Source: a virus
DNA: 64,000 bases
Direction: 5' to 3' (one strand)
Virus record (IMG/VR): IMGVR_UViG_3300050821_003619
Location: 45,251-109,250 of that record
Shown: piece by piece, positions 13,350 to 60,378 of the stretch
How the letters are laid out: each line of letters opens with the position of its first letter
How positions within the stretch are numbered: the stretch's first letter is position 1
Translations under genes and position numbers: made by a program
Notes under the pieces: model-generated
Databases searched by the model: none
The model's input: the letters and a program-made list of their open reading frames with translations, nothing else
Told to the model about the DNA's origin: nothing

Positions 13350-13510
13350 AAATTTATAAAATTGATATTAGCCACAAACAATGGGGCAACAACTGGGACT
13401 CACAAAAAATCGCGGCACGTAATTTTAATGAAGTTGTACGTAAGATTAAAAAGACACTTGGTCGCAATGAAAATATAGAGAGTGTACAGGTACTGGCCTC
13501 TACCAACTAA
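13346..13510 (+). CDS. Small hypothetical protein (54 aa, not in ORF track)
   Basis: MKIYKIDISHKQWG...; ATGA and TAATG overlaps with neighbours; GAGGA SD. Confidence 0.6.
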   Translation: MKIYKIDISHKQWGNNWDSQKIAARNFNEVVRKIKKTLGRNENIESVQVLASTN

Positions 13511-33318: not shown

Positions 33319-34200
33319 TTATTTTCCTTTATCAGCAACGGTGTCATTGATCTTGTTTGCCTTGCTGTCTTTAAATATAATCTTGTATTCTAGGTCCCCG
33401 TGATCTTGGCTTAGCATTATGATTCCACCCGGCTCAACAGAATCGGGAGAATCATTGGTGCTTTCCAAGGTATTGGAATCTTGAGTTTTTTGTTCTTGCA
33501 CGTATCTCTGTAGCTGCTTAATATTGGAATTGTGCATTACCAATAGCAACGCACCGGTATTACGAGCTTTGCAGATGAAGTGTTCAAGAGCTTCATCACA
33601 ACGGTTCTCAAACTGGTAGTGGCTTTCGCCCTCCGGCACTTTACGGTGTGGATGCTCTTTAAACCAGTTTAGCTTTTCTTTGTTTTCTTCAGTTTTCTCT
33701 TGTCCGTTGTATACACCTTTGTTCCACGTACGCATACGAACATCTGTTACGATTTCATTATTGCTTAACCCGAGAGCTTTAGCTAGAATTTTAGCCGTCT
33801 CCATCGTGCGCTTCATATCCGAAGCTATAATGTATCGTATACCCTTATTCTTCAGCTTATCGGCGGCTTCTTCTGCATCTTTAATACCGGCTGGGTCAAT
33901 CTCAGCGTTCTCCCAACCCCCAATTAAATGGTCAGCCGCGTCTTCTCCGTGACGCACAGCGTACAGAAGAACGCGCTTAGGAGAACGGAAATATCCACAA
34001 CACCAGTTGTCTCTAACTGGTTTGGGCTCCCCGTGTGGTCCCACCACCTCTGGATCAATTTGAACCACAGGATGGTGGCAATGGTCGTGTTTGTACCAAA
34101 TGCAGTTGTGGCATTCTCGTGGTGGCTGGTTCTCTTCATTCGTAACCAATCCACTCATCTTTGTGCCATCAATCTGCACTAATTTCCAATCTTCGGCCAT
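33319..34200 (-). CDS. Histidine phosphatase (PGM-like) with N-terminal Cys-rich domain
   Basis: VRHGE, SDMKRT.ETA, PEGES, VMH; N-terminal ECHNC...C...WCC. Confidence 0.88.
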   Translation of the reverse strand: MAEDWKLVQIDGTKMSGLVTNEENQPPRECHNCIWYKHDHCHHPVVQIDPEVVGPHGEPKPVRDNWCCGYFRSPKRVLLYAVRHGEDAADHLIGGWENAEIDPAGIKDAEEAADKLKNKGIRYIIASDMKRTMETAKILAKALGLSNNEIVTDVRMRTWNKGVYNGQEKTEENKEKLNWFKEHPHRKVPEGESHYQFENRCDEALEHFICKARNTGALLLVMHNSNIKQLQRYVQEQKTQDSNTLESTNDSPDSVEPGGIIMLSQDHGDLEYKIIFKDSKANKINDTVADKGK

Positions 34201-43707: not shown

Positions 43708-43737
43708 TAAATAACAAAGGGACGCCGAAGCGCCCCT
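43708..43737 (-). terminator. Intrinsic terminator after the nozzle gene
   Basis: AGGGGCG-CTTCGG-CGTCCCT-TTGTTATTT. Confidence 0.7.
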
Positions 43738-43745
43738 CTGTAAAG

Positions 43746-46700
43746 TTACGACGATGGGAACCCTATGTTTCCACCACCTGTAGCCGGTAGTGTAGACCAT
43801 GGAGACCCTCTGCCTGTTAACAATGACTTATCCATCTGGAACCATGCTCCAACAGCATTCGTTGAGAATTCTAAGAAAGCTCGTTGAGCCTGTACATTGA
43901 TTGGACGGAAGTAATCGTTTTGTGCAGGGTAGTTAAGCGTGATGCCAACCGGCACCTGATACGGATAACGTGCGTCAAGCGTATTAGGCAAAATACGCAA
44001 AGACATCAGACCTGCACCGTGACCTGTGATTTGCAGCACAGTATACGATTTGTTGTGGAAACCAAATATAGGTAACGTTGCAGCCTTAGCTGCATTAACG
44101 TGCCCATAAGTAGTGTACACACTGTGAATTGCTGCTCCATCATCACTTAACTGGTCGGGGTCTAACTGGTAGACCTTTGAAGATGCTATGCCGTTGCATA
44201 TGAACAGCGGTTGATCTATACCGTTTTGTCTAGTGATGAAATCCATATATGGAGAAGGAATCTGCCATATGGTCCATTTTCTCTTCATATCCACTGCAGC
44301 TAACGTACCAAACATCGTTGTATGCATTTCAGCTTGACTTACCAGTTCCTCGAAAGTACCGAGACCCTGATAGTTCAAACAAAGCATAACGTTCGGGCTA
44401 GTAGGTGTAGGGTTGTATACAGAGTTAGGAAGCCACTTTACAGATGTTGTTTTCTCTCCAGTGATAGGATTGGTGCCTGTAGGCAACGGAATCGCGCAAA
44501 GAATACGCTTATTGATAATGTCGTTACGAAGTACAATCGTGTTACCGGCATTCCAATTGATTGCGTCCCATACCTGATAGATTTCCTGCATCATCTTCTG
44601 TGGTTGCCCACCATTGAAACCAAATATACCCGCACGGCACGCCATCACAGCCCATTCTTCACCAACATCATAAGCGTGGATACCAATGGCACCCACCTTG
44701 TTACTCACCTCGTGTAGGCCCCAGCCTCCGGGTTCGGAGTTAGGATTGTTTTCGGTTGAGTACATGCTTTGTGTCTTCATCAAGAATAGCTGATCATGCA
44801 TTACGAACCCTCCCATAACTGATTGAGAGTTCTCAGGCGTAGTATCTATGATGCCTCCTTGATCGGCAGAGGCGTCAACAGACTCAGGTCGATTAATATA
44901 CGAACCGTAGACTTGAGCCAAGATGTTTGGTGTCTTGGTAGGATAAACTTCCACACGATCTATTTCGACTCCTGCACCTGATGCCAGATTGCTGGCGTAG
45001 ATGCGTAAAAGTAGAGTAGAAGGTACGGAACCCACGATGCTGGCTGCTCCACCTTGGTTTACCGAATTGGTAAACGGAGTGGTTAACAGTGCACCAGAGA
45101 ATACTGCAGTAGAAGTTGTCATGCTTGAGAAAGGCACTACGAACGATCCGTACTGTGTGCTTCCGTCTGACAAATCTACCACCAGATTACCATTAGTGTT
45201 AGCAGAGGTTATACGAGCAGCTATACGCACAGAATAGGTTGTATTCTGAGCAATAATAGGAGTACCAAAACTGTCTTGGTATGCCGTCTGCTGTATCAAT
45301 CCTGCCCCGCTTAAGGTGCTGGCTGATGTGTTATTAATTGCGTACGCAAATCCAGTAACTGTGCTGTTAACCAGTGACCCGGTGAAATCTGGAGCACTCC
45401 AACCAGATGGTTGGTTAGGAACAATGTAGCTATCAAATGACATAGCAACAAAGTTTTGAACCTTGTTAAGCTGCAATCCGTAGAACATACGATTAGCGTA
45501 TGGAACGGCCCAAGCTGAGCTTCCCAGTTCAATAAGGTTAAACAGGTTGTCACCCTGCACGTCAATTTCTCGTGAATTAAGAAGAACTGCATCTGTGAAC
45601 GAGAAAGTAGCACTTTGCGTAGTGTTGTCTCTAATAATGGTTGACTGAGCTAGAGTAGTTGTAACCGTACCAATGGTCTGCGTTACGGGGTTTTCGATAA
45701 CGTAGAAGTTAGCTCCGGGTACACCATTTTGTCCTGCTTCAGTGAACGCTATAGCTCTAGCAATTACATACGAAGGACCAATAGGAATGTTGCTAACCTG
45801 AATGGAGTTGGTTCCTGCTGCCACATTAAACACAATAGGTGTATTTGGGGCGCTTTCGTAACCTGTCTCTGTAATGAAGTAGCACACTGCTTGTCGCGTA
45901 CCAGCGGCAATTTGTGTTGTGCCACCGGGTGTAGTACCGATTACGTTTAAGGTTCCTGTGGTTCCATTTCCATAGATTGGGTTAGTTGTGGTTCCTGTAG
46001 CGTTTGCACCGGGATCGATCAAAAACTGTGTACCATAAACTACGGCTTGACCGTTTTGGGTTACGCTAGAATTTGGCGTAGCTCCAGCAGGTGCAACAAC
46101 AGTAAATGTACCGCTCGATCCAAGAGGCAATGCGCCAGAAGGGGCCACACTCTGTACTACATAGGTTCCATTCAGATCGGTACCAGTGTCTACCAGAGTA
46201 TTTGTGACCTTAACAATTTCTCCTGCCGTAGGTCCTACTCCGGTTGCTACCGTAAACGTGAATGTAACAGTGCTGCCTGATACGTCAACTGCTGAGTTAG
46301 TTATACTCATAGTGCCGCTATTTAAAGGCTGCACAACAGTGAAAGTTTGATTCCATCCTGCTGGAGATTCTCCAGTGATAGTTATCTGGCTTCCTGCAGT
46401 TATATTTGGCACACCGGTTGTAGTGGTTACTACTGCTAGTGAGCGCTCGTATGTCATACCAGCCGTTGAATTGGTCTGGAAGTGTCCCGAAGAGGTAAAG
46501 TTGAACGTAAAATAGTAACGCTCTCCTGATCCACCGGGAGGAATACCGATACCCACGCTGGTTACCTGCCATGTGCCATTAAAGGTACCTGTGCCAGTTA
46601 TATACACATACGTTGGTATGCCTAACTTCATTTGCTCAACCAAGTTGTCGTCACCCGGTATACCGCTTCCGCCAATTGAGGCGTTTGCGTAGTATACGGT

Positions 46701-48806
46701 AACAACGCTACCCGGTTGTGTGTTTCCTACACCTGCACTTTGCAATAGAGTTATCCAAGGTCCTTTAGGATTAGGCCCGTCTGGATTGTTGTAGTGTCCC
46801 GCACTGCCGCCGTTTGTTGGGGTGGGTAGAACTGTGAATGAATTAGGCTGTTTAATGCTTGATATGCCAAAATTTGGTGCCAAAGTAGCAGTTGCAGTAG
46901 ACACCAAGTTAGTAGAAATTAGATTAGCATGAGAAGGCACTGAGATTTCAAATTGAGTAGGTGATAGTCCAGCGGACAAAATCACAAACGGCAGATTATT
47001 AAGCTGCGTATCAGTTACGCTGCCGGGTGCCGATGGAATAATATTGCTCAGAACATATACTGTTCCTGCTGCGGGTTCTGTGCCTGTGTACTGAAAAGTA
47101 GCTACTCCACCTGACACTGCATAAGAAGTCAATGAGAGGTTAGTAGCAGTAGAACTAGATGTAGCAGTTACGCTAAGCTGACCACCGGGAGCATACATAG
47201 ACAATGGAAGGAACTGAGTGCCATCATAAATGCGAGGACGATCTGTTCCTACGGTAAGATTAGAGAACATAATGTACTCTTGATCTAAAGCCGTAACACT
47301 CTTTGCATATGAGCCGGGTAAAATACCTGTCAAAGCAACAGAAAGTGCACCGGGGTTACCCGTTACATCCTCCTGCCACAAAATACCTGCGGCGTCCAGT
47401 GCCAGCGTGTCTATCTGTCCATCATCTTGCACAAAAGACTTGATGTAGTTAAAGTTCTCTAAGGCAGGGGTGATATACGTCAACATGTCCAAATCATTGA
47501 TGAATGTTGTGCCTGTGCCAGTAGAAACTACCTGAACTCCAAATGCGTTAGCGTTTACATCAGATGCCAGCCATGTGCTGCCCCATAGATCATTAGATGT
47601 GCCTAAAGAATATATCGTAGGAGTCGTAGTCAAAAGCTGCGTCTTTGGCGTGCCGACCGTTAGGCCGTTTTTTAACAACTGCAAAGACACCGTAGTTGCT
47701 TGGCTTGAATACGCTTGGAATGTTACACCAAAACCAGATATACCAGAAGTAGCAGGTACCGTAAATGTAAAATTCTGCACATTCAAAGAATTAGAGCTAC
47801 CGGAAGTGGTGTAATACAAAGTCACCGACAACTGATCTATAGAAAATGATCCTGTACCGCTGTTCTGCTGTGCATCGATCAGTATGCCGAATGGCGTACC
47901 ATTAACTATCTCAGGAGTTAAAGTTGTACCCCATTGATAGGCCGATGAACCTTTTGTGTACACCGCTAACGAAGGTCCAATAGGCACATTAACTGCCGTA
48001 CCAATTGGGAATCCGTTCTGTGCTAATTGCAGGTTGATAGAAGAACTTCCTGCTGATCCAGTAGAACTGGCCCTAAACGTAATTGAGATGCCAGTAACCG
48101 TAGCATTATTAGTGATCGCATACCCAACATTATTTGCTAGAATAGGAGAAGACGTTGCGCCTGTTAACGTGATCGTAGCAAACTGTGTTGACGATAAAAT
48201 ATTAGCAGGATTAGTAAATGTTAGGGTAGTTCCAGAATTAGCAGCAGAACCGGGAACAGCAGGCTGAGTCACTGTACTGCCCGTACTTACTGTTGCATAC
48301 GCTGTGTTACCTAGAATATTGTTAGGAGATACCCATGAACTGCTGCCGCCTGTTTGTTCTGTGGCTGAGGACGGTACGTTGGGTCCTACAAACAGACCGG
48401 TCAAAGAAATAGCGGTTGCACCGGGAGAAGCTGTGGTTATGATGTCATGTACTCCCACAAGTATAGCAGTAAATGTTGTGGGGTTGCTGGCCTCAACTAC
48501 TACCTGTAAACCATTCAAAAATGTTAATGCTCCAGTGAAACCCTGAAGCAATAAAAGCTCATTCACTACAGGCTGTGTTCCTGTGTACGTGAATAGCGCT
48601 GTGCCGTAAGTAATGCTTACGGAAGAAATCTTAATTGTAGTGCTGTATGTGTAGACAGATGATAGACCGTCTCGTGTGAATACGCTACCTACGATAAAAT
48701 CCACGTCTTGGCAACGTGGGCTGGCTCCTTCTGGTACGTTCTCAGGAGAAGCTAAGGTAACCATACCCCCAAAAGTGTCTAAAGAGGCGGTTCCTAGTGC
48801 TTGCAA
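43746..48806 (-). CDS. Tail nozzle/tubular protein B-like (P22 gp10/T7 gp12-like) with large Ser/Thr-rich insertions
   Basis: N-terminal FGG...PEGASPRCQDVDF...RDG; C-terminal beta-propeller-like region (YGS...PESVD, VGAIG, GIFGFNGG); start may be ATC at 48818. Confidence 0.7.
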   Translation of the reverse strand: MQALGTASLDTFGGMVTLASPENVPEGASPRCQDVDFIVGSVFTRDGLSSVYTYSTTIKISSVSITYGTALFTYTGTQPVVNELLLLQGFTGALTFLNGLQVVVEASNPTTFTAILVGVHDIITTASPGATAISLTGLFVGPNVPSSATEQTGGSSSWVSPNNILGNTAYATVSTGSTVTQPAVPGSAANSGTTLTFTNPANILSSTQFATITLTGATSSPILANNVGYAITNNATVTGISITFRASSTGSAGSSSINLQLAQNGFPIGTAVNVPIGPSLAVYTKGSSAYQWGTTLTPEIVNGTPFGILIDAQQNSGTGSFSIDQLSVTLYYTTSGSSNSLNVQNFTFTVPATSGISGFGVTFQAYSSQATTVSLQLLKNGLTVGTPKTQLLTTTPTIYSLGTSNDLWGSTWLASDVNANAFGVQVVSTGTGTTFINDLDMLTYITPALENFNYIKSFVQDDGQIDTLALDAAGILWQEDVTGNPGALSVALTGILPGSYAKSVTALDQEYIMFSNLTVGTDRPRIYDGTQFLPLSMYAPGGQLSVTATSSSTATNLSLTSYAVSGGVATFQYTGTEPAAGTVYVLSNIIPSAPGSVTDTQLNNLPFVILSAGLSPTQFEISVPSHANLISTNLVSTATATLAPNFGISSIKQPNSFTVLPTPTNGGSAGHYNNPDGPNPKGPWITLLQSAGVGNTQPGSVVTVYYANASIGGSGIPGDDNLVEQMKLGIPTYVYITGTGTFNGTWQVTSVGIGIPPGGSGERYYFTFNFTSSGHFQTNSTAGMTYERSLAVVTTTTGVPNITAGSQITITGESPAGWNQTFTVVQPLNSGTMSITNSAVDVSGSTVTFTFTVATGVGPTAGEIVKVTNTLVDTGTDLNGTYVVQSVAPSGALPLGSSGTFTVVAPAGATPNSSVTQNGQAVVYGTQFLIDPGANATGTTTNPIYGNGTTGTLNVIGTTPGGTTQIAAGTRQAVCYFITETGYESAPNTPIVFNVAAGTNSIQVSNIPIGPSYVIARAIAFTEAGQNGVPGANFYVIENPVTQTIGTVTTTLAQSTIIRDNTTQSATFSFTDAVLLNSREIDVQGDNLFNLIELGSSAWAVPYANRMFYGLQLNKVQNFVAMSFDSYIVPNQPSGWSAPDFTGSLVNSTVTGFAYAINNTSASTLSGAGLIQQTAYQDSFGTPIIAQNTTYSVRIAARITSANTNGNLVVDLSDGSTQYGSFVVPFSSMTTSTAVFSGALLTTPFTNSVNQGGAASIVGSVPSTLLLRIYASNLASGAGVEIDRVEVYPTKTPNILAQVYGSYINRPESVDASADQGGIIDTTPENSQSVMGGFVMHDQLFLMKTQSMYSTENNPNSEPGGWGLHEVSNKVGAIGIHAYDVGEEWAVMACRAGIFGFNGGQPQKMMQEIYQVWDAINWNAGNTIVLRNDIINKRILCAIPLPTGTNPITGEKTTSVKWLPNSVYNPTPTSPNVMLCLNYQGLGTFEELVSQAEMHTTMFGTLAAVDMKRKWTIWQIPSPYMDFITRQNGIDQPLFICNGIASSKVYQLDPDQLSDDGAAIHSVYTTYGHVNAAKAATLPIFGFHNKSYTVLQITGHGAGLMSLRILPNTLDARYPYQVPVGITLNYPAQNDYFRPINVQAQRAFLEFSTNAVGAWFQMDKSLLTGRGSPWSTLPATGGGNIGFPSS

Positions 48807-48839
48807 ATTGTGGCCGATATAGGTACCCTCGATTCTTTT

Positions 48840-48873
48840 ATAAAGGGGAAGGCTACCTAAACGTCTTCCCCTA
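48840..48873 (-). terminator. Hairpin/terminator
   Basis: AGGGGAAG...CTTCCCCT-TTAT. Confidence 0.6.
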
Positions 48874-48903
48874 GCCCGATATTTTCTCAGGATGTTCTTT
48901 TTA

Positions 48904-49119
48904 CTACTCTGTTATAGAGCCTTCTTTTAATGCATAGCAAGGCACATTATTAACGGTAATACGTTGTGCAGTAGTGGTCGCGTACTGATCATTAAGTAGA
49001 ATGCTTGCAAGCCCATTGGACACTGACAAGATTTTACATGAAATAGAACGGCCATCCCCCACAACCACTAATCTACCGTTAGAATCTGTATTAGTTGTAG
49101 GTGCTCCGGGTACAGACAT
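48904..49119 (-). CDS. Small hypothetical virion protein
   Basis: AGGAG SD. Confidence 0.6.
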   Translation of the reverse strand: MSVPGAPTTNTDSNGRLVVVGDGRSISCKILSVSNGLASILLNDQYATTTAQRITVNNVPCYALKEGSITE

Positions 49120-49131
49120 ATGGTGTTCTCC

Positions 49132-49485
49132 TTATAATCTGTTGTAGATGAATTCACCAACGATGATATCATTAAGGACCTGAGCAGGGATGATAGCTGA
49201 TGCTGATAGCTCAGTGCCATTCAAGAAGATCATAAGTTCATCGACAGCAGGGATATACTTGTAGGTATACCCATTAGAGGTTTCTCCAACTACTGTAGCC
49301 TGCAAAAACTGCTTGGTGTCAATGGTCTGTGCGTTAGCATAGGCAACCATTCCGACAGGAATTCCACCAACGTTATACACGCCTGCTCCAATAGAAAGCT
49401 GAACCCACAAAGTAGATGTCTTAGCATCAAATGAAGGTCCCGCAACTAGAGCGGCTATAGTAACTGAAGGTAACAAACTAGACAT
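49132..49485 (-). CDS. Putative head decoration/structural protein
   Basis: GGAG SD before ATG at 49485; YNVGG...GYTYKY...ELS motif. Confidence 0.55.
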   Translation of the reverse strand: MSSLLPSVTIAALVAGPSFDAKTSTLWVQLSIGAGVYNVGGIPVGMVAYANAQTIDTKQFLQATVVGETSNGYTYKYIPAVDELMIFLNGTELSASAIIPAQVLNDIIVGEFIYNRL

Positions 49486-49570
49486 ATTATTTTCTCCCAC
49501 GATTCACCAGAGTGTATCTGGCTTACGTATACTAAGGCTTATAGCCTCGGTTTAATTTAATTGTACAACT

Positions 49571-50284
49571 TTACGTCTTTCCATTTAGCTTGTTAAACAA
49601 ACGATGGAACTCCGCAATCTTTTTTTCAACGGGAATAGAGTTACCACTATCGGCCTCAAGGAATACCGTCCAACTAAAAGTATCTTTGGTAGACACGTCT
49701 TTAGGCTTTGGTGGTCTTAAGGGCCTATGAAATGGGTAATCCTCTCGTAGATCGATGCAATCCCCTATGTAAATCTCGTAGCGATGGTCATTAACTATGT
49801 GTATACCGTGTTGATGCAAAGTTTCTGCTACCCATTTCTCATCGTCATTGTTATCGGGTAACGGAGAACCGACCATGATTTCCATGCATTGTCTGGAAAC
49901 CCACCAATTAAATCCTACTGGAACATTGTACCCCTGATTAAGGTATCTATTAATCTTTCCTGAGTACTGGTGCTTTTCGTAGCCTGACAGCAGCAACTCT
50001 ACAGGTCTTAGAACGACATCATCATCACACTTCAACATGTAGTCGTAGCCGTGATCCAATGCCCACTTCATGATCTGTCTTACCTTCTCTGGAAGGTCTT
50101 TATACAAGTCACCGCAATTTAACGGTACAACATTGGGTTCATCTGAAGTATCTGCCCCTATAAAGAATCTTACATCGGCTTTTCCTTCCGGTACCATAGC
50201 CAGCCATGTACTTCTTATAGCATCTCTCCAGTTTTTTCTATGCTGTGCTGAGACCACCGCTATCAATGTTTTAGTCTGAGCCAT
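49571..50284 (-). CDS. GT31-like (galactosyltransferase/Fringe-type) glycosyltransferase
   Basis: RDAIRSTW, D.Y..L..K, YDYMLKCDDDV, DDEKWV. Confidence 0.85.
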   Translation of the reverse strand: MAQTKTLIAVVSAQHRKNWRDAIRSTWLAMVPEGKADVRFFIGADTSDEPNVVPLNCGDLYKDLPEKVRQIMKWALDHGYDYMLKCDDDVVLRPVELLLSGYEKHQYSGKINRYLNQGYNVPVGFNWWVSRQCMEIMVGSPLPDNNDDEKWVAETLHQHGIHIVNDHRYEIYIGDCIDLREDYPFHRPLRPPKPKDVSTKDTFSWTVFLEADSGNSIPVEKKIAEFHRLFNKLNGKT

Positions 50285-50292
50285 TGATGTTG

Positions 50293-51126
50293 CTACTCCA
50301 AAAGGTTTCTGTTCTTCTCTACAAAATATTCGTTAGTGAACACTTTGAAACGCTCTTTATTTTGAAGAAAGTATGATGGTAGCCTAGGATCGTCTGTTTC
50401 CCATCTCTGAGCGTCACCTATACCAGATCGATGGTACAAATCTCTTCCGTTCACCACATCGTCTGCTATTTGTCTGTCCGTGCGGGACTTTATGTAGGGG
50501 TGAAGATCATCATGAGAAATAGCGTACACTTTTCTTCTTAATCTATCTAGGTTGTCTGAGAAATAAGAACAGTGCCAGCCGCCGTTTTCTATAGACGGCC
50601 AGTTGGGGTCCATATCTCCCGGACCACCTCTAAAACTACAGATGCCTTCCCTGCGCTTAATGTCTCCTACAACTCCTATACGGGCACGAGACCATGCTCG
50701 CTGGCCGTAGTTAAACATGTGGTTAAAATTGTAGTAAAAGGTGTACTGTAGCAGGTTTCTCAACCCTAAGTCTGGTGTATACGACTTTACTACCTCTGGA
50801 TTGGGTATCTCATCCAAATCAGAAAAAGACAAAGTGTCATTTTCATTGGGATTCAAGCCATATATCGCAGGAACCAGTGCTTCTCTAAACTCTCTCTCAA
50901 AATCCCATGAACCATAAGGAGGAAGCTCTGGGACAATGCAAGTTATTTTATGGTTCCACTTGTCAAACCGGCTTTTATTCTCTGAGTAGTACAAAGGCTT
51001 AGGTGCGTCCATGAATGTTCGTCTAGACTCAGCGAATACAAATCTGTCTACTACTTCGTCAAGTTGACCTAAGCGAAGTTCTAGCAGGTCCAACTCGTCG
51101 TTAAAGATAAAAGAGTCAATTACCAT
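50293..51126 (-). CDS. GT17-like beta-1,4-GlcNAc transferase
   Basis: IDSFIFNDELDLLELRL..L..VVD.FV..ES..TF...KPL, SDLDEIP, GWHCSYF. Confidence 0.9.
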   Translation of the reverse strand: MVIDSFIFNDELDLLELRLGQLDEVVDRFVFAESRRTFMDAPKPLYYSENKSRFDKWNHKITCIVPELPPYGSWDFEREFREALVPAIYGLNPNENDTLSFSDLDEIPNPEVVKSYTPDLGLRNLLQYTFYYNFNHMFNYGQRAWSRARIGVVGDIKRREGICSFRGGPGDMDPNWPSIENGGWHCSYFSDNLDRLRRKVYAISHDDLHPYIKSRTDRQIADDVVNGRDLYHRSGIGDAQRWETDDPRLPSYFLQNKERFKVFTNEYFVEKNRNLLE

Positions 51127-51541
51127 TTAGTATCCTGTTTCTCAATTCAGTAGTAGACAAATTTCTAACCAGCGGACACAAGGCTATAACAATCTTGTGG
51201 TCCTTTAGAAATTCATCAGACAATCCCATCTGAGTTTTTAATTTTTCTTCTGTCCAATCACTGCCATTTACAACATGAGTTGGATTCACTTCTTTTATAG
51301 TAATGGTTGAGTCTTCATCGCCACGGTTTATAACCACGTTATCTACGTAGCGGCAGGATAACACCATTTCCATACGCTCTGCTAAAGATTGAGTAGGTAG
51401 AACACCTTTGTATCTCAAAACAAACTCATCTCTATTGAGAGCAACAACTACTTTATCGAAGGTCTGCCAGCACCACTTAAAGAATCTCACATGCCCCGGG
51501 TGAAACAAATCAAATGTGCCACCACAATAAGCTATCGACAT
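51116..51541 (-). CDS. Cytidylyltransferase (TagD/RfaE-II-like HxGH nucleotidyltransferase)
   Basis: GGTFDLFHPGH, DEFV..YKG, ER, YVD.V, GSDW, STT. Confidence 0.9.
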   Translation of the reverse strand: MSIAYCGGTFDLFHPGHVRFFKWCWQTFDKVVVALNRDEFVLRYKGVLPTQSLAERMEMVLSCRYVDNVVINRGDEDSTITIKEVNPTHVVNGSDWTEEKLKTQMGLSDEFLKDHKIVIALCPLVRNLSTTELRNRILNGN

Positions 51542-52263
51542 GAGTCCTGCCATTCTCTGTGCAGTTTGTGCATGTACTCTGGACGATATTTCCACTCTGT
51601 TTCTCTACCGTTACCGTCCCACTTTTGTCCGTGAGGATATATGGTAGACAGGTGGCAAGAAATGATCTCGTTATCTCGTCTAGGTCCTAAATCGTTAGTC
51701 GTTAGGTTACAAGTCATAAAACGAGTGTCGCAAATGACTAATTCTTCATGCCCTCTAATTATGCGTCCAGTCCACAAATCTTCTTCCCATATACCGGGGT
51801 TCTGAGCCTCTAATAGAGGAAACTCCTGCACAGCATACGTTAAGGCTTTTTTGCTTAAGAATGCCCCGGCACCGCTCTGGCAGTGTTGACCATGGCTTAC
51901 GTGCGGCCATGGCTGTCTTGGGTCTTCATGGTAAAAATCACCCAGATAATCAGAGCGATCTGCACCGCACGACAGAAGCCTTTCGACACAAGCATAGGTG
52001 TCGTGGTAACAATGGAATACTAAATCGTAACCGTTGTTTACGGTCCAACGGTACTTTTCTCTGGTCTTAGCTATTAATCCATAGTAGGAATCATCTACAG
52101 GGAGAACTACAGTGTCGTCACACTCTTTCGATCCCGTTCCAGAGAAGAATTTGTAATCTACACCTAAATTCTTAGCATCAACTAGCCAAGTATCACGGAG
52201 AGCGTTGTTCCACCCGTTACTCTCAAACTTGGAGCAACTGCTTATTGCTATCAACAATTTCAT
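51532..52263 (-). CDS. GT31-like glycosyltransferase (altered DxD)
   Basis: LRDTW, DDSY.GL..KT, YDLVFHCYHDTY, SGAG.FLS.KA, EDLWTG. Confidence 0.8.
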   Translation of the reverse strand: MKLLIAISSCSKFESNGWNNALRDTWLVDAKNLGVDYKFFSGTGSKECDDTVVLPVDDSYYGLIAKTREKYRWTVNNGYDLVFHCYHDTYACVERLLSCGADRSDYLGDFYHEDPRQPWPHVSHGQHCQSGAGAFLSKKALTYAVQEFPLLEAQNPGIWEEDLWTGRIIRGHEELVICDTRFMTCNLTTNDLGPRRDNEIISCHLSTIYPHGQKWDGNGRETEWKYRPEYMHKLHREWQDSCR

Positions 52264-52916
52264 TTTGCACCGTAATCAATAGGTTGTAGTTTAGCCCACT
52301 CTATGTGGTCTTGACCGATTACATCGTATGCTTCGGGTGTAACTCTTGTAACTGAGGACTCTTCATGATAGCAACGAGCTTCATCCATCAAAACTATTTT
52401 GAAACCATTTGTTGTCAGCCTGTAATACATGTAGGTATCGCCATACCAATGCTTAACGGTACGGGGTATAGGGTAAGCTAACTTTGCTGCCTCTCTAGAC
52501 ATAAAAGAGAAGTACCATGCCGGTGTGTTATACGATACCGCCATATAATTAGGGTTTGGTACCGGTTGTCCTATGGCCGGAATCAGCACTTCATTAGGAA
52601 ACTCTTGCATACGCCGAGCTACCACATTGTACCACCCCGGATGGAGTGTTACGTCTGAAGTGCCTAAACCAATCACATCGTATCCGTGATTTATTCCATA
52701 CTCTAATATCTGGTTCCACGCCCCGTTACAGTAGCCATTAGCAGAGTTTACTATAGTAAGTATTCTGTTGCCAAACTCACTCATTACGTGCCTTACGTCT
52801 CTGTCGGCAGCGTTATCTACTGCTAGAACATCGGCTGGGGTATCGACTAAGGCTTTAAGACAGCGCTTTACCGAGTGGCCTAGCCTGAATACTGGGGTAC
52901 CCACTAAAATCTTCAT
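52260..52916 (-). CDS. GT2-family glycosyltransferase
   Basis: VDNA.D, N.G...AWNQ, SDV, WYGD, CYH..S. Confidence 0.8.
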   Translation of the reverse strand: MKILVGTPVFRLGHSVKRCLKALVDTPADVLAVDNAADRDVRHVMSEFGNRILTIVNSANGYCNGAWNQILEYGINHGYDVIGLGTSDVTLHPGWYNVVARRMQEFPNEVLIPAIGQPVPNPNYMAVSYNTPAWYFSFMSREAAKLAYPIPRTVKHWYGDTYMYYRLTTNGFKIVLMDEARCYHEESSVTRVTPEAYDVIGQDHIEWAKLQPIDYGAK

Positions 52917-53548
52917 TGTTCTAAGCTCTCCAACCAAAGTTTATGTTCTGAAAACACATTAGTACCTACATATCCCCCCGGCTGAGTGGAAAGATGGTTA
53001 GTTATGGTATGGTTGGTCTTTAAAGGGCCGGGACCGCAGTATGAGAAGGCTTTAGAATCTCCTCTGTGTATTTCGTAATTATTGTGGAGTTGGTCCCCTA
53101 CCCAACAATCCTCGTTTGGATAGTTACTTTCTTTTTTATCTAAAACTTCACAAGCTTTACGACTCAGAAAATACCCCGGTCCTCCTTGGCAATAAGGACT
53201 ACCTCCGGGGTGCTGATGCACACACCCAAAGTAATCAAACTGCTCAAATCCAGAGGTTAACAACCGGCTCGCACACACATATGTATCAGGAAAGCACATA
53301 AACACGTAGTCATAGCCGTTATCCAATGACCATTTAATCTTTAGCTTGGTCTTGCTGGTTAAATCCCAATAACCATCATCACAATCCACCAAAACAACGT
53401 CATCCTTAGGCGTTGCTCCCCTGCCATGAAAAAATTTATAGTCTATACCCAACCGTGTTAGGTCTTTGAGCCATGTTTCTCGTAAGGGAGCGTTTAAACC
53501 AGAATTTTCATAGGCTTGACAACTGCTTATTGCGACCAGTAGTCTCAT
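52913..53548 (-). CDS. GT31-like glycosyltransferase (altered DxD)
   Basis: LRETW, DDGY.DL..KT, YDYVFMCFPDTY, GGPGYFLSRKA, EDCWVG. Confidence 0.82.
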   Translation of the reverse strand: MRLLVAISSCQAYENSGLNAPLRETWLKDLTRLGIDYKFFHGRGATPKDDVVLVDCDDGYWDLTSKTKLKIKWSLDNGYDYVFMCFPDTYVCASRLLTSGFEQFDYFGCVHQHPGGSPYCQGGPGYFLSRKACEVLDKKESNYPNEDCWVGDQLHNNYEIHRGDSKAFSYCGPGPLKTNHTITNHLSTQPGGYVGTNVFSEHKLWLESLEQ

Positions 53549-54467
53549 ACCACTCCACGGTCTCCTTCAGGCCCTGAATAAAAGGTGTTTTCGCTTCGAA
53601 ACCAAACTCTTTCAATGCTCTGTTGGTATCCAGAAGTCTTCTTGGCTGTCCATCAGGCTTTGTAGTGTCGTAAGTTATTTCCCCATGGTATCCAGTGGCA
53701 TGAGCTACCGCATGCACTAGATACTCTATGGATATTTCCATGCCGTTACCCAAATTTACAGGGTCTGCACCATCATACTTTTCAGCGGCCAGCACTATTC
53801 CTTCAGCAGCATCTTTAACATACAAGAATTCTCTAGTGGCTCTGCCCGTACCCCATATAGATACGTTAGTTTCTCCTACGTCTTTAGCGTCCATCATTTT
53901 CTTAATAAGAGCAGGAATCACATGGGACGAGGACGGATCGAAATTATCTCCCGGCCCATATAAGTTAACCGGTACAACGTAGATGGCGTTGAACCCGTAT
54001 TGCTGACGATAGGCTTGGGCCTGAACCAGCAGCGCTTTCTTCGCAATGCCGTAGGGCGCATTCGTTTCCTCAGGGTAGCCATTCCAAATATCATCCTCTT
54101 TGAAGGGTGCAGGGCAATACTTAGGATACGAGCACACCGTGCCTACCTGAACAAACTTTCCAACATTAAAAAAATGAGCCGCTTCTATAAGCTCCATGCC
54201 CATCTTTAAATTTTGATAAAAGAACATGCCGGGAGACTTTTGATTAGCCCCTATGCCGCCACACTTCGCAGCTAGGTGAATTATGATATCAGGTTTATAT
54301 AAACCTAACATATCATAAATGCTGTCGGTATCTAGTAAGTCCAGTTCACTATGAGAAGGAGTTATGATCCACTCTGGGTTGCCTTGTTTCAGTCTCTCCA
54401 CAACATGTTTGCCGAGAAAACCAGAAGCTCCCGTAACAAGCACTTTCTTGTTCTCAATTGCGTTCAT
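53508..54467 (-). CDS. fcl: GDP-L-fucose synthase
   Basis: [58 protein letters not shown]. Confidence 0.96.
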
Positions 54468-55431
54468 TCTGAGTCACCTTTTGTAAGTCTGAGTCAACCA
54501 TTAGCTTAACTAATTCTTCGAATGTTGTATTAGGTTCCCATCCAAGAACTTGTTTTACTTTAGAAGCATCACCTTGTAGTATATCGACTTCTGCTGGTCT
54601 GTAATATCTTGGATCAATTGTGACATATCTGGTCCAATCAAGATTAAGGTATCCGAACGCCACATCAAGGAATTCCTTGACGGTCTTCGTTGTCCCAGTT
54701 GCAACCACGAAATCATCGGGTCTACTGTGCTGAAGTATTCTCCACATGCATTCGACATATTCTTTTGCGTATCCCCAGTCTCTTTTTGCATCAAGGTTTC
54801 CCAAAGCAAGCTCATGTTGTAACCCTAACTTTATTCTGGCTGCTGCTTTGGTGATTTTACGTGATACAAAGGTTTCACCCCTGCGCGGAGACTCATGGTT
54901 GAATAGGATTCCATTACTAGCAAACGTCCCATAACTTTCTCTGTAGTTGACGGCTGTCCAGTAGGCAAATTGCTTTGCGACTCCGTACGGGCTACGGGGA
55001 TAAAAGGGAGTATTTTCATTTTGTGGTACCTCTAGTGGTTTACCAAACAACTCACTGGAGCTTGCTTGGTACACCTTAGTGTCAGGCTTTATAGACTTGA
55101 TTGCCTGCAGTAAATTAAGGGTTCCAATCGCATCCACGTCGGCGGTATATCTTGGGGAATCAAAACTAACCCTAACATGAGATTGTGCTCCAAGATTGTA
55201 TACTTCGTCTGGTCTAACTGTGGAAATTGTTTCTGCAATTGCTCCAGAGTCGGTAAGGTCGCCATAAACGAGATGTAGTTTGGACAAAATATGGTCGATT
55301 CGTCCAGTATTGAATGAACTTGATCTTCGAAGGATGCCATGTACTTCATAGTCCTTTTCTAAAAGAAGCTCTGCAAGGTATGAACCGTCTTGCCCGGTAA
55401 TTCCAGTTATTAGTGCTTTTTTCTGAGTCAT
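54454..55431 (-). CDS. gmd: GDP-mannose 4,6-dehydratase
   Basis: [61 protein letters not shown]. Confidence 0.98.
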
Positions 55432-55439
55432 ATCAATCC

Positions 55440-56429
55440 TTACGACAACAACGGTCTACGAAGGTTAGCGGCTCTGTATGCAGACACAACATTTCTCTTC
55501 TGTTCCATGTATGGGGTTTCCGTGATAACTTGAGAAGTTGGTTCTGACTTACCCGTCTTTTTATTGTGTATACCTTCCGTAATGTACTGCTCGATCAAAT
55601 CCCATTGATGCACGCTTTTTAGGGCTATTTGATAATTTTCTTCTATAGCCTCTATACGTTGGGCGTACATTTTTGGATGAATAGAGTGCAGCCTCTCCCA
55701 TAGATGTCCTAGATTTTCAAACATCAGGAACCCTTCAGGATTGAAGTAATCCTTAAGATTAGGACAGCCCCAATAAATAGGAAACGTCTTAGCTATGAAG
55801 CAATCTACTATCTTCTCCGTGTAGTAACCGGTGTTCTGGCAGTTTTCCACCACTACGCTGTATTGATAAGGTTCCAACGTGGATTTCTTATCGTCAATTC
55901 GTGGAGGAGATTTGTGCTTCCACACATTTAAATCCTCGTACGACTCTTTTGATCTAAAAGAAGCAAGCTGATCAAATATTTGTTGTCTTAACTGGTGTCC
56001 CGGTAACCATCCTTTAGAGCTTGTCAAAAAAGACACACCAAACTGTTTTTTATTTATGTCGCACGGGGTATACTCGGCCACTGAAGGATAAAATTCAGGG
56101 GAGAAGTGAGCCTTAGCGTTACCACTCTTTCTGCCTATCCAACTACATGCTGATTCTGTCAAGAATCTGGCATTGGGGCACTCTCTGAGAACTCTTTCAT
56201 CGTACGCCAATATCAAGTCGTAGAACTTGTGGTTTCTAATCAGGATGTCGATGATGTTCAATACTGCTGGCGGCTCACACTGGTGAAATACCTTAAAATA
56301 AGCGTCATCAGAGAAATTAAATCCATCATCCCAAGTGATAGAAACCGTTTCTTCTCTCTCAAGGAAATTTTGTGGCAATCCCGGTGCAGGTCCTATAGAA
56401 CTAGATGTGTAACATGTTGGATAAGGCAT
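55440..56429 (-). CDS. GT10-like alpha-1,3/4-fucosyltransferase
   Basis: YQYSVVVEN...[11 protein letters not shown]...TFPIYWG GDP-fucose-binding motif; adjacent to gmd. Confidence 0.85.
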
Positions 56430-57102
56430 TCTGAGTCTTCACCTCTTTTTCAAACACTCTCTTAAATTCTTTTTGCATGAGTTCCTCGGGAACGTCATGG
56501 TTATGCATGCACCATGAAAAATACATAGAAGACTTAGAACTAGCTGGTGCACTTCTTCTAAGAGGTCTTTTATCTGTGTATAGTCCTAAATTTCTTCCGT
56601 AATGCAAATTATATCTTGGGTCATGATTTAGATAGATTCCTTCTTTTATCAAAGAGTGGGCAACCCACGCCTCATCATTATTCCCCTGAGGCAGGTCCTT
56701 GGTTGCCATGATACGCATGGCTCTATTAGATAGCCAATAATTAAATCCCCACGGTACATGGCTGTTTTCCGCACATCTATGGGCAGTAAAGTCGCTCTTT
56801 TCAAATCCTGAGGCTAAAATTTTGTGGGGGCTGAGCACTACATCGTCGTCACATTTTAACAGGTAATCATATTCGTGATTTAGTGCCCATCTAATGATTG
56901 ACTGGACCTTATCAGGAAGCCCTTGGTAGGAATCGTCACAATCTAAAACTATTTCGTCTTCCAGTGCTACTTTTACCGTTCCTCTACCGTAAAAAAATAT
57001 AACATCAACAGTTGAAGGTACTAACTTTACCCATGTACTACGCACTAGGTCAGTCCAACCTGACCTAGTGTGGCAACTTACTATAGCAATGAGTATTTTC
57101 AT
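56401..57102 (-). CDS. GT31-like glycosyltransferase
   Basis: VRSTW, CDDSYQGLPDKV, YDYLLKCDDDV, NDEAWV; paralogue of 49571-50284. Confidence 0.85.
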   Translation of the reverse strand: MKILIAIVSCHTRSGWTDLVRSTWVKLVPSTVDVIFFYGRGTVKVALEDEIVLDCDDSYQGLPDKVQSIIRWALNHEYDYLLKCDDDVVLSPHKILASGFEKSDFTAHRCAENSHVPWGFNYWLSNRAMRIMATKDLPQGNNDEAWVAHSLIKEGIYLNHDPRYNLHYGRNLGLYTDKRPLRRSAPASSKSSMYFSWCMHNHDVPEELMQKEFKRVFEKEVKTQNALSNMLHI

Positions 57103-57107
57103 ATAGG

Positions 57108-58265
57108 CTACACCAAGAATATAAAACCGGGCAAATCAAACGCTGAGGAAGCTGTTAGTGCTCCCAAAGTGGCAGGCATTGCTCCACCAGACATAGCATT
57201 TGCTGCAGTTCCTACCGCAACTGAAGTTATTGGTGTCAATGTTTGAGCTATGGTAGCACTTGTGTATGTGTGCGCCAAAGATGCTGATCCAGAATTATTT
57301 GCTGTTCCTGACCAAGCAACTATGTAGGTGCCGGGTCCTATAACTACAGGAGAACCTAAAGTAACAGACAATGCTGTGTTACCATTCTGTGTATTAAACG
57401 CGTTAGCTCCAGCATCTATAAGTTTAGTATTTCCATCGGATGTGTACACTGCACACGAGGCAAAGGTTGAAGAACCTGACCCTGAACCAACACGAGTAGC
57501 TATTTGTCTAACTGTGTAAGTTGCCAGCAAATTCAGCAAACAATAAGACACTACGTTTGCTGTGTTAGTAGAAGCAAACCCATTGTTTCCAGCAGTTACG
57601 CCGTTTATGGTTTGTCCACTATAGAAAAAAGCAGAGCCTGCGGTAGAAAACACGTTTCCACCGGCTGTGGCCCACGATCCATCTCCACGCCAAAATGTGC
57701 TGGACGTAGCTCCTGTGCCCGAATTCATCTGATTTACAGCTATATTGCCAGTAAGATTAGAGAATCCTATGCTAGGAAGATCGCCTAAAACTAATGATCT
57801 AAAAGTAGGTGTAGCTGCAGGCCCAGAAGCTGGTCCCGCCAGTACTTTATTCGCACTCTCATTTGAGAATGATAACCCTATCGTTCCAGATGTTGTGATT
57901 GGTGACCCTGATACAGTTAGTATGCTTCCTGAATCTGCTGTCAATCCTACGCTCGTAACCGATCCACCTCCACCGGCTACGCCTATGGACTGGTCTGGAT
58001 ATACTTGCTGGATAACGGAATTCAAGGCCACTACAGCTGTGTAGGTTCCCGGTAAAACATAAAAGTCATAATGACCAAAACCATCAGTAATGATTGGCTG
58101 AGCAATGGGCACTAAACCTGCTGGGTCAGAAAAGATGCTCGCCAGAGGTGAAGGTGGTGCGAATGCCACGTTAGCCGGTTGTAACGCAACGTATACTTGT
58201 GCACCCGGTATGGCTTGGCCGGTAACGGCTTTTACCCACCCGTCTGACCGAAAATACGTTGGCAT
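57108..58265 (-). CDS. Tail/head fibre protein with N-terminal virion-attachment domain
   Basis: RSDGWVK..G.AIPGAQV.V...TDGFGHY.FYVLPGTYT shared with 59031-59771; ANKVLAGP..PTFRSL shared with 29155-31623. Confidence 0.75.
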   Translation of the reverse strand: MPTYFRSDGWVKAVTGQAIPGAQVYVALQPANVAFAPPSPLASIFSDPAGLVPIAQPIITDGFGHYDFYVLPGTYTAVVALNSVIQQVYPDQSIGVAGGGGSVTSVGLTADSGSILTVSGSPITTSGTIGLSFSNESANKVLAGPASGPAATPTFRSLVLGDLPSIGFSNLTGNIAVNQMNSGTGATSSTFWRGDGSWATAGGNVFSTAGSAFFYSGQTINGVTAGNNGFASTNTANVVSYCLLNLLATYTVRQIATRVGSGSGSSTFASCAVYTSDGNTKLIDAGANAFNTQNGNTALSVTLGSPVVIGPGTYIVAWSGTANNSGSASLAHTYTSATIAQTLTPITSVAVGTAANAMSGGAMPATLGALTASSAFDLPGFIFLV

Positions 58266-58266
58266 T

Positions 58267-59031
58267 TTATGCTCCTATGATGCTACCAAAGTTTACTGGG
58301 GTAGCCGATGGTGCTGGTGCCGCGAATAAACCTGCTGCACTTGCTCTGTAATTAGCTTGTGATCCACTTCCAAATGCAGTTGCATTCCCGCCTGATACAC
58401 CGCTTAGATTGTACTGCATAGTGCTAAATGTAACTTGCACCATGTTTATTCCTAAGGAATAACCAGAACCAGCCGTACAATTTACTGTGTCTCCAATGAA
58501 TCCAGCAAGAACTAGGTCACCTGCGATTGAAAGGGTCAGGGTTCCTGCGCTGGGTACACCTGATCCGGTAGAATTGGGTGCCCGTTGTGCATCTAATACC
58601 AAAGATGGGTTTACATTAGTTTTAACGCCAGAGAATTCATATACTGCAAATTCACCAACCACATCTTGAACGTTTCCTGAACCACCGGTAGAAAATGTAA
58701 CAGTAAGTGTTGTTCCTGCACTTAAACCGCTAGGTGCATTTTGCAAGTAATTTATGCTATGACTTACTTGTACAGTAGTACTCTCATTAAACTGGTTACC
58801 AGTAGCTTGTCTCCAATTTGCTGAGGGAGCCAATAAAAAACTAGGAGCAACAGCTACACCATCAAATGTACTTGCATGATGCGTGGTGTTTTTTACGGCA
58901 CTAAAGACTACTATACAGTTACCCGGAGTAATGCTGTTGGGTATATTGATAGTTGCAGTCATAGAACCGGGAGAAGTCCATGTAGAAGAGTTGAAGCTTC
59001 CGTAAAAAGTCTGTACTAAAGCTATGCTCAT
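58267..59031 (-). CDS. Ser/Thr/Gly-rich virion appendage protein
   Basis: MSIALVQ start; beta-rich; VYEFSG motif. Confidence 0.6.
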   Translation of the reverse strand: MSIALVQTFYGSFNSSTWTSPGSMTATINIPNSITPGNCIVVFSAVKNTTHHASTFDGVAVAPSFLLAPSANWRQATGNQFNESTTVQVSHSINYLQNAPSGLSAGTTLTVTFSTGGSGNVQDVVGEFAVYEFSGVKTNVNPSLVLDAQRAPNSTGSGVPSAGTLTLSIAGDLVLAGFIGDTVNCTAGSGYSLGINMVQVTFSTMQYNLSGVSGGNATAFGSGSQANYRASAAGLFAAPAPSATPVNFGSIIGA

Positions 59032-59771
59032 TAAGGTATGCTAATGTTCAAAGTAACATTAATTCTCTGCACCGTAGTAACAGAGTTTAAGTTAAACTGA
59101 ACAATATCTCCTGCTGAAATCGCCGTGGTGCCCCAACCAGTCAGAGTTAAATCCTCATTCTTCTGAGCACTGGTTAATGTGGGCTTATCGGAACCAGCTA
59201 TGCTAACCGTTGTTGGGAACCCTGCATACGTTGATTTTAAAACGTCTACCACGCATGAACCCGACTGATCGGCTGTTATTATCCACCCTTTAACAGTGCA
59301 CGCAAAAGGAATACTCAACTGTCCTTTTGCTCCCAGAGAAGGAGTGGCTCCTCCACCGTCAATGGTGTACTGAATAGAAGCAGTTCGTGTCGTAGATATT
59401 GTGTTACCCACGATAGTTATGCCATTACCGGGAACTAAGGATGCTCCACCAGAAGACAACCCTATAGTCTGGTCTGGGTAAAACTGCTGCAGCATACCAG
59501 ATAGGTATACCGCTACTGTATAGGTTCCGGGTAAAACATAAAAATTATAGTGTCCAAAGCCGTCTGTAATTATCGGCTGAGACAGAGGAACCAATCCATT
59601 AGGATCGCTATACACTTGCTGCAATGGAGTAGGTGTAGGTACCTGTGCACTCAATCCTGAGGGAATGTTGGCAGGCTGCTGGCAGACAAACACCTGTGCG
59701 CCGGGAACAGCATTGCCGATGGCACTCTTCACCCAGCCATCACTTCTAAAATCAATAGGTATTGTTGCCAT
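59031..59771 (-). CDS. Fibre protein with the same N-terminal attachment domain as 57108-58265
   Basis: RSDGWVK...TDGFGHYNFYVLPGTYT; C-terminal IDGGG...ADQSGS.VVDV.K beta-sandwich. Confidence 0.75.
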   Translation of the reverse strand: MATIPIDFRSDGWVKSAIGNAVPGAQVFVCQQPANIPSGLSAQVPTPTPLQQVYSDPNGLVPLSQPIITDGFGHYNFYVLPGTYTVAVYLSGMLQQFYPDQTIGLSSGGASLVPGNGITIVGNTISTTRTASIQYTIDGGGATPSLGAKGQLSIPFACTVKGWIITADQSGSCVVDVLKSTYAGFPTTVSIAGSDKPTLTSAQKNEDLTLTGWGTTAISAGDIVQFNLNSVTTVQRINVTLNISIP

Positions 59772-59790: not shown

Positions 59791-60297
59791 TTACTGTCTT
59801 AAACCCATTGCTGATTCTTGTGCTGTTTTTTCAAATTCACTTAAGGGTTTTGCATCAAATTGTTTAAAAGCTCTTTTAACTGCCCACCCTGTGGATTGTT
59901 TTTCTCTCACTGATAAACTATTGGCAGTACGTATTCTGTGACAGTTAGCGCACACTAAGTCGCATTTATCAGCCTCTAGTTTTAATTCTTCTATAGGTTT
60001 GTATATTTTAGCACCTATATTAAAGCTTTTAGAAAAAGTATCTCTATGATCGAAGTCATACACACACTCAGGAAATATTCCTCCACAATCCATACATTTA
60101 CTTCCTTTGTATTGTACTAATTGGGTCTTTTTGGCTCTATGGTCATCTTTAGACCTTTGACTTCTTTCTTCTCTATGACCCGTTCTGTAGTCCACCATGT
60201 TCTTCCTACGGCATTGTCTACAAACTTTGGTGTTTTTCCATAAATACGTGTTTTCTTCGGTGAATTCGTGACCACGTTTACAATGTGTTTTTGACAT
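59791..60297 (-). CDS. Free-standing HNH endonuclease with N-terminal KTHCKRGH Zn motif
   Basis: KTHCKRGH..CRQC; KCMDCG...YDFDH...KC.LVCANCHRIRT; ATG at 60297 after GGAAGGA. Confidence 0.88.
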   Translation of the reverse strand: MSKTHCKRGHEFTEENTYLWKNTKVCRQCRRKNMVDYRTGHREERSQRSKDDHRAKKTQLVQYKGSKCMDCGGIFPECVYDFDHRDTFSKSFNIGAKIYKPIEELKLEADKCDLVCANCHRIRTANSLSVREKQSTGWAVKRAFKQFDAKPLSEFEKTAQESAMGLRQ

Positions 60298-60378
60298 ATT
60301 TTCCTTCCGATTAAGTCGGGAAGAGGAGTGAATCGGCACTCCTCAACCCTAGCCCGAGGTAATTAGTCTCGGGTTAAG
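60298..60378 (-). promoter_or_regulatory. Structured 5' leader of the HNH gene (three hairpins, SD-sequestering)
   Basis: AACCCGAG/CTCGGGCT; GAGGAGTG-CCGATT-CACTCCTC; TTCCCGA-CTTAA-TCGGAAG overlapping the SD. Confidence 0.6.

Follow-up and report, generated by a model that had tools for sequence, protein, structure and literature searches.

Giant viruses glycosylate their capsids and fibrils autonomously, the chlorovirus PBCV-1 with its own GMD/GMER and multi-domain glycosyltransferases (GTs) and the Megavirinae with fibril gene clusters, and streptococci O-glycosylate serine-rich-repeat adhesins in the cytoplasm, where the GT4 primer GtfA/B is followed by several soluble GTs. Among phages, virion O-glycosylation is reported for the mycobacteriophages Che8, Corndog and Myrna (Freeman et al. 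2023, as cited in PMC12619734), and large T4-like cyanophages (S-SCSM1, ORF113-135; P-SSM2; S-SSM7) carry blocks labelled 'cell wall synthesis and modification' or lipopolysaccharide (LPS) (PMC9602691). Both phage sugar/GT islands (in cyanomyoviruses) and virion glycosylation (in mycobacteriophages) are already known. Here we analyse a ten-gene island of sugar genes at positions 49571-57102 of a 64,000-nucleotide stretch of phage DNA (IMG/VR record IMGVR_UViG_3300050821_003619, positions 45,251 to 109,250; this whole stretch is called the window, and coordinates refer to it unless stated otherwise), which is the last 64 kb of a 109,250-bp phage genome from a soil metagenome. What this locus adds is a mix of GT31-like, GT17-like and GT10 enzymes, a compact size and a constant place in the fibre operon of a defined clade. 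On the best reading of these genes, to which we give slightly less than an even chance, the glycan made by the island is placed on the phage's own virion proteins.

Each of these systems resembles the island in part. Like the giant viruses, the phage combines virus-encoded GDP-fucose synthesis with many soluble GT-A enzymes, although giant viruses are eukaryotic viruses with cytoplasmic factories, and homology of their acceptor proteins to those of this phage is not implied. The streptococcal system and the arrangement proposed here have in common a GT4-type enzyme and variable soluble elongating GTs that act on Ser/Thr-rich proteins, but this phage lacks the extreme Ser-rich repeats that serve as acceptors in streptococci, and the link of the phage's GT4-like gene to the island is speculative. 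In Che8-type mycobacteriophages, as we propose for this island, soluble phage GTs without membrane partners put glycans on the phage's own structural proteins; Che8, however, encodes three GTs without a pathway for sugar nucleotides, against seven or eight GTs and GDP-fucose synthesis here, and in the mycobacteriophages, whose hosts are actinobacteria, glycosylation has been demonstrated, whereas in this soil phage, whose host is probably Gram-negative, it is predicted from genes. The cyanophage blocks, which hold several fucosyltransferases, share with the island a cluster of Gmd, GDP-L-fucose synthase, fucosyltransferase and further GTs in a lytic phage, but belong to myoviruses of cyanobacteria, employ GT11, NodZ and POFUT-like families in place of the GT31-like, GT17-like and GT10 enzymes found here, and are not described as lying inside a fibre operon (PMC9602691).

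The interval is filled by ten co-directional open reading frames (ORFs) on the minus strand, each of which overlaps its neighbour in the block or lies within 8 nt of it; they encode Gmd, Fcl, a GT10-type enzyme, a GT17-like enzyme, a GT2, four GT31-like paralogues and one HxGH nucleotidyltransferase. This layout and the family matches bear out an earlier note, made from the letters of the window, which had described ten contiguous, mostly overlapping sugar genes. The GDP-mannose 4,6-dehydratase Gmd (54454-55431) scores 498.7 bits with TIGR01472, above the equivalog cut-off of 415, and 453 bits with PF16363. The GDP-L-fucose synthase Fcl/GMER (53508-54467) has NF047922 as its best family by far, at 307 bits against an equivalog cut-off of 500, and matches PDB entries 8du0 (2.5e-73) and 1bsv from E. 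coli (4e-61) over its full length. Its GTVC, YGIAK and SSHV segments align with the catalytic positions of solved synthases, and the catalytic triad as well as the Cys and His of the epimerisation step are kept; we take this set to be, in E. coli numbering, S107, Y136 and K140 for the triad and C109 and H179 for epimerisation. The GT10-type (alpha-1,3/4) fucosyltransferase-like protein (55440-56429) remains just below the PF00852 cut-off (22.0 against 23.9 bits) and matches Helicobacter pylori FucT (PDB 2nzw, 6.4e-12; 5zoi, 1.2e-11); at residues 192-205 it has VVENxxxxxYYTEK, and ENxxxxxY.TEK is presumably the conserved nucleotide-binding motif of FucT enzymes. The Gmd score, the intact Fcl residues and the FucT match with its motif agree with the calls of the earlier note for these three genes. 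The rarity that it implied for such an island was overstated, since Gmd is found on at least 599 IMG/VR stretches and a cultured cyanophage has a gmd-fcl-FucT-GT block (PMC9602691).

The four GT31-like proteins differ at the DxD position. Those encoded by the first gene of the island (56401-57102, 5 nt after a fibre gene) and by the last (49571-50284) keep three Asp residues (CDDDV), score 28.2 and 29.1 bits with PF01762 (GT31; cut-off 23 bits) and are 44% identical to each other. The two others are paralogues without DxD, namely 52913-53548 (CFPDT; 25 bits with PF01762) and 51532-52263 (CYHDT; no Pfam match), which are 39% identical (E 1e-42); the latter scores 351 bits with a family hidden Markov model (HMM), a score that is not independent, as the model was built from four sequences including this one. 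When an AlphaFold2 (AF2) model of 56401-57102 (pLDDT 93) was searched against the PDB with Foldseek, the matches down to Manic Fringe at rank 38 were GT31 enzymes (TM-scores 0.60-0.66) with one exception, the fucosyltransferase WrtF at rank 37; B3GalT6, B3GNT2, CHSY3, B3GalT5 and C1GalT1 are, with Manic Fringe, among these top matches. Relatives of the phage (16 IMG/VR loci, retrieved with an adaptor-like protein encoded upstream of the fibres and labelled L005-L020) have three motif classes at this position, DDD, DLD and xxD. The sub-lineage without DxD keeps the last Asp only (CFPDT, CYHDT, CFSDT and similar in relatives), and the subfamily of 52913-53548 is conserved among them, the L006 homologue being 59% identical. 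By analogy with Cosmc, the non-catalytic partner of C1GalT1, these proteins could be non-catalytic partners, or else they could be metal-independent transferases.

Of the other transferases, the GT2-family protein (52260-52937; start codon uncertain, with an ATG 21 nt inside) scores 26.5 bits with PF00535 (cut-off 23.3) and has a 45% identical homologue in L005/L006, and the GT17-like protein (50293-51126; SDLDEIP motif) scores 93.1 bits with PF04724 (cut-off 26) and covers positions 75-299 of its 348. No solved structure was matched by the GT17-like sequence, which has 2167 metagenomic homologues, many of them on contigs of about 100 kb. The HxGH nucleotidyltransferase (cytidylyl or adenylyl; 51116-51595; FHPGH and LSTT motifs) scores 69.4 bits with PF01467 (cut-off 21) but remains below all equivalog cut-offs (RfaE domain II, 70 against 181.5 bits; TagD, 50 against 165 bits); its PDB matches are human ethanolamine-phosphate cytidylyltransferase (ECT, 2.6e-18) and TagD (3.8e-10), and it has no homologue in the fetched loci of the relatives. 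No shared C-terminal tag is evident in the C-termini of the island transferases that were compared. With PF01762, PF00535, PF04724 and PF01467 all matched above their cut-offs, and 51532-52263 added by paralogy, the GT31, GT2, GT17 and cytidylyltransferase calls of the earlier note hold as well.

A hydropathy scan found neither a transmembrane segment nor a signal-like N-terminus in any of the ten island proteins. The GT31-like proteins begin at the first strand of the catalytic domain, with a maximum 19-residue hydropathy of at most 1.12, and do not have the type II membrane anchor and stem of eukaryotic GT31 enzymes. The genome is complete (direct terminal repeats; CheckV 100%), and throughout its 109 kb there is no polytopic membrane protein: no ORF has more than three hydrophobic segments, and therefore no Wzx, Wzy, WaaL or Gtr-type protein is encoded. 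Nor is there a polytopic membrane protein among 124 island ORFs from 14 loci. Classical serotype conversion of the Gtr/Wzx/Wzy type is excluded by the absence of any polytopic membrane protein from the genome. The earlier note had stated that the island proteins are without obvious signal peptide or transmembrane segment and that wzx, wzy and gtr genes are missing, and both points stand; it had also argued against O-antigen conversion, of which the Gtr/Wzx/Wzy type is excluded. The families found and the want of transmembrane segments also support its description of a self-contained, soluble, cytoplasmic pathway predicted to make GDP-L-fucose and to transfer several sugars.

Between about 61.3 kb and 43.7 kb the minus strand has a single strong terminator (43741-43714; 12-bp stem), which lies 3' of a gene for a 1686-aa protein and closes the unit, and because no other strong terminator precedes it the island is most likely co-transcribed with the fibre genes and the giant virion-type gene as a late structural unit. 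Directly upstream of the island are three fibre/virion genes (57108-59771, minus strand; phrog_10330 virion structural protein, 3.8e-22). Two of their products, those of 59031 and 57108, begin with a common anchor domain (61% identity across the N-terminal 100 aa) and differ in their distal parts; this common domain and the PHROG match support the label of fibres that the earlier note had given to 57108-59771. Downstream of the island follow conserved genes, also on the minus strand (43714-49500), namely a 122-aa gene, a 71-aa gene and, before the terminator, the gene for the giant 1686-aa virion-type protein (43746-48806). This protein has no match in Pfam, PHROGs or PDB sequences, and its earlier designation as a nozzle was not confirmed.

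The position of the island is kept in the clade. Nine distinct relatives have enough sequence downstream, and every one of them carries GT31-like genes directly after the fibre genes; in a tenth, L013, a GT2 comes immediately behind the giant gene. Four loci show which genes close the island: in L007 and L015 these are homologues of both the 122-aa gene and the giant gene, and in L008 and L014 the 122-aa gene alone, at which the fetched stretch ends. The other fetched loci end first. As to content, the gmd-fcl-GT10 trio occurs only in L005/L006, L012 and L016 among the relatives, the other islands holding RmlD-like reductases, other short-chain dehydrogenases/reductases (SDRs), GT32-like enzymes, a GT11 fucosyltransferase and a DegT aminotransferase; in the fibres only the N-terminal ~95 aa are conserved. 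Because its place is fixed while its sugar content is swapped, and because the fibres beside it keep their N-termini only, the island behaves, in this gene comparison, as a hypervariable cassette in the host-recognition part of the genome. Further upstream of the fibres are a gene with weak similarity to an SU10 adaptor and an HNH endonuclease gene. The latter (59791-60339, minus strand) lies between the adaptor-like gene and the fibres, and none of the relatives has it there. In the nearest of them, genes of the HNH and NUMOD3 types occur within the island (L006:14206-14745 and L006:20091-20636). Homing endonucleases may help to shuffle island segments. A protein of the histidine-phosphatase superfamily (33319-34200, minus strand; PF00300, 104 bits) is encoded within the structural/ejection arm.

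Beyond this clade, GT31-like, gmd, fcl and GT10 genes recur on other soil phage backbones, in nearly the same gene order in L023 and as larger islands in L022, L027 and L071. The larger islands of L027 (111.6 kb) and L071 (117 kb), both IMG/VR soil contigs, have about six GT31-like genes, gmd, fcl, DegT and GT10, with a DHH phosphoesterase nearby. A related soil phage island in L021 encodes a 775-aa fused GT2-GT2-GT31/Fringe protein (L021:11774-14101), reminiscent of the multi-domain transferases of chloroviruses, and also, on the opposite strand, an 840-aa ice-binding-like protein. In the ESM Atlas, nearly all members of the GT31-like family are viral; structural neighbours occur in Verrucomicrobiota and giant viruses, and Fringe/GT31-like and FucT domains are common in Nucleocytoviricota. 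The one pattern scanned did not find the family in 185,579 prokaryote species genomes, which is a weak negative. A megablast of the locus against 50,697 phage records, searched for cultured relatives, gave no match, and the same records contained no tblastn match to the GT17-like, GT31-like or 877-aa head-region protein either; the large terminase (TerL) found matches there of only ~25% identity. The phage looks like a virulent one, and no integrase is among the plus-arm families listed, a weak point in that four of the 29 families are not shown.

Virion glycosylation is supported by the late co-transcription with fibre genes, the fixed place in the clade, the lack of a matched flippase or polymerase and the viral GT31-like family. 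With no membrane protein among the ten products and no polytopic one in the islands or in the genome, the phage has therefore no flippase, polymerase or ligase of its own that would be matched to a new lipid-linked glycan, and a GT31-like family that is almost wholly viral, and that the one pattern scanned did not find in prokaryote genomes, argues for a phage-specific acceptor. In such a scheme, Gmd and Fcl, judged by family membership and catalytic residues, would convert host GDP-mannose into GDP-L-fucose, which the GT10-like enzyme would transfer, and the GT2, the GT17-like and the two DDD GT31-like enzymes would, going by their families, add further sugars from host UDP-sugars. The nucleotidyltransferase may activate another building block, a heptose or a phospho-alcohol, and the two GT31 paralogues without DxD may take part as metal-independent transferases or as non-catalytic partners. 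The acceptors would most likely be the fibres encoded at 57108-59771, made from the same transcript, and perhaps also the 1686-aa protein and an 822-aa fibre-like protein (29155-31623, minus strand). Glycosylation would take place in the cytoplasm, while virions are assembled or earlier, and would give them a coat that is lineage-specific across the clade.

Several observations weigh against this scheme. No recognisable protein-O- or N-glycosyltransferase family is present, GT41 was not found in the genome, and there are neither mucin-like tracts nor Ser/Thr-rich C-terminal extensions on head proteins. The validated GTs of Che8, gp108-110, have no detectable sequence similarity to any protein of this locus (best BLASTP E 0.047; no match with the GT31 HMM). 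Several island enzymes have as their nearest characterised relatives proteins that act on LPS or teichoic acids (H. pylori FucT, RfaE-II and TagD), and the authors who described cyanophage S-SCSM1 interpreted its comparable block as serving to modify the host cell wall (PMC9602691). The homologous larger islands of L027 and L071 adjoin no fibre genes but genes for phosphoesterases, a UvrD helicase and a PD-(D/E)XK nuclease, and a position near fibres is therefore not general for the cassette; of the synteny check in IMG/VR that the earlier note had proposed, and which we ran, the islands at the same place in the clade agree with its view, and these two beside replication-type genes do not. Its argument from Ser/Thr richness is weak, since richness of this kind is unspecific and ordinary for fibres: Ser plus Thr amount to 21-24% in the fibres at 57108-59771 and to 21-28% in the fibre-like proteins overall, without mucin-like tracts. 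The 822-aa protein (28% Ser plus Thr) has 30 NxS/T sequons where shuffled sequences would have 17.8 (z 3.7), an excess seen in this protein only and owed partly to an internal ~80-aa repeat (YWNGT...TDSW.IQN); we regard it as a lead, not as evidence. Of the earlier claim that virion proteins are the acceptors there remains that it is the best reading and that the genes belong to a late structural unit with the fibres; the Che8 enzymes are unrelated.

The rival that deserves most weight, although we hold it to be unlikely, is remodelling of the host envelope, in which undecaprenyl-linked or lipid A-core intermediates on the inside of the host membrane would be the substrates; the soluble GTs would rely on the initiating enzymes, flippases and ligases of the host to change its LPS, capsule or exopolysaccharide (EPS), with receptor masking, exclusion of other phages or a smaller loss of progeny on debris as the effect. 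Solubility does not speak against it, since bacteria, too, build LPS and EPS with many glycosyltransferases that are soluble or peripheral, and the nearest characterised relatives of several island enzymes (H. pylori FucT, RfaE-II/TagD) have LPS or teichoic acid as substrates, in line with this reading. It also accords with a content that differs among close relatives as in O-antigen loci, with the L027 and L071 islands among replication-type genes and with the published reading of the cyanophage gmd-fcl-FucT blocks (PMC9602691). On the other hand, a late structural operon of a seemingly virulent phage would act too late to protect the infected cell, not one of the 124 island ORFs is an initiating transferase, flippase, polymerase or ligase, and the GT31-like family looks viral rather than recently host-derived. 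Wzy-type polymerases, for their part, are normally specific for their repeat unit. As acceptors, a virion protein and a host lipid-linked glycan are not separable by sequence.

We consider it very improbable that the island serves DNA hypermodification, with an oligosaccharide built on a modified base as in T-even phages and in the 5hmC and 5hoC glycan systems. Phage GTs akin to LPS and teichoic acid enzymes do glycosylate DNA, in clusters that can adjoin structural genes, and the known routes to bases that can be glycosylated run through a thymidylate-synthase homologue, a TET/JBP dioxygenase or a C5-methylase (bioRxiv 10.1101/2023.12.21.572611; PMC13326640); islands of the L027/L071 type adjoin DNA-metabolism genes, and this genome encodes a ParB_N protein. 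Yet PF00303 (ThyA), PF12851 (TET/JBP) and PF00145 (C5-methylase) are all absent from the complete genome, in a search to which control genomes responded, and no other base-modifying family is among the plus-arm proteins, the replication arm showing only RecA, RNR, PolA, helicases and ParB_N. Known DNA glycans, moreover, comprise one to three sugars, against some seven transferases here, and the additional GT-B enzyme described below resembles GT4 proteins, with no T4 alpha- or beta-GT among its listed top matches. The earlier note had likewise set DNA modification aside, and with all three routes missing it is disfavoured. An acceptor of another kind, be it host proteins, small molecules or a free or secreted oligosaccharide, is improbable as well: none of the analyses singles out an acceptor, which leaves it some room, but the genome has no export or membrane component and the literature searched offered no precedent.

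If the glycan is indeed placed on virion proteins, one gene outside the window may bear on how its chain begins. A 364-aa GT4-like GT-B enzyme is encoded next to the large terminase gene (genome coordinates 12648-13742, minus strand). Its homologues number about 2,000; the best 119 listed besides the phage's own protein are 57-69% identical and lie on contigs of 80-200 kb, and sequence comparison marks it as a conserved core gene, in contrast to the variable island. The enzyme folds like a generic GT4 protein, nearest to SenB, PimA, BshA and TarM, which is uninformative on the acceptor. That it primes the glycan chain is speculative. Were it to do so, the phage could possess a two-tier 'serotype' system, in which a constant GT4-like primer is combined with a swappable cassette of eukaryote-type GT-A enzymes (GT31, GT17, GT10/GT11), complete with sugar-nucleotide pathways of its own, that builds lineage-specific fucosylated, possibly Lewis-like, glycans on the fibres of a phage whose soil host is Gram-negative; we put this forward tentatively, as a possibility on the doubtful side. 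If true, it would be the first virion glycosylation outside the actinobacteriophages and would explain the large, almost purely viral GT31-like family.

Large soluble sugar islands are common in uncultured soil and marine phages, and this one is tractable, with ten genes in a complete genome, a fixed position between the fibres and a giant virion-type protein, and natural variants that swap the sugar chemistry. If its glycan is on the fibres, virion glycosylation would extend from actinobacteriophages to phages of Gram-negative soil bacteria and would bear on the evasion of proteases, host defences and adsorption traps; if it is on the host envelope, the island would be a case of a virulent phage that remodels the cell surface with genes expressed late. 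In both cases a viral family of hundreds of GT31-like proteins would be given a function.

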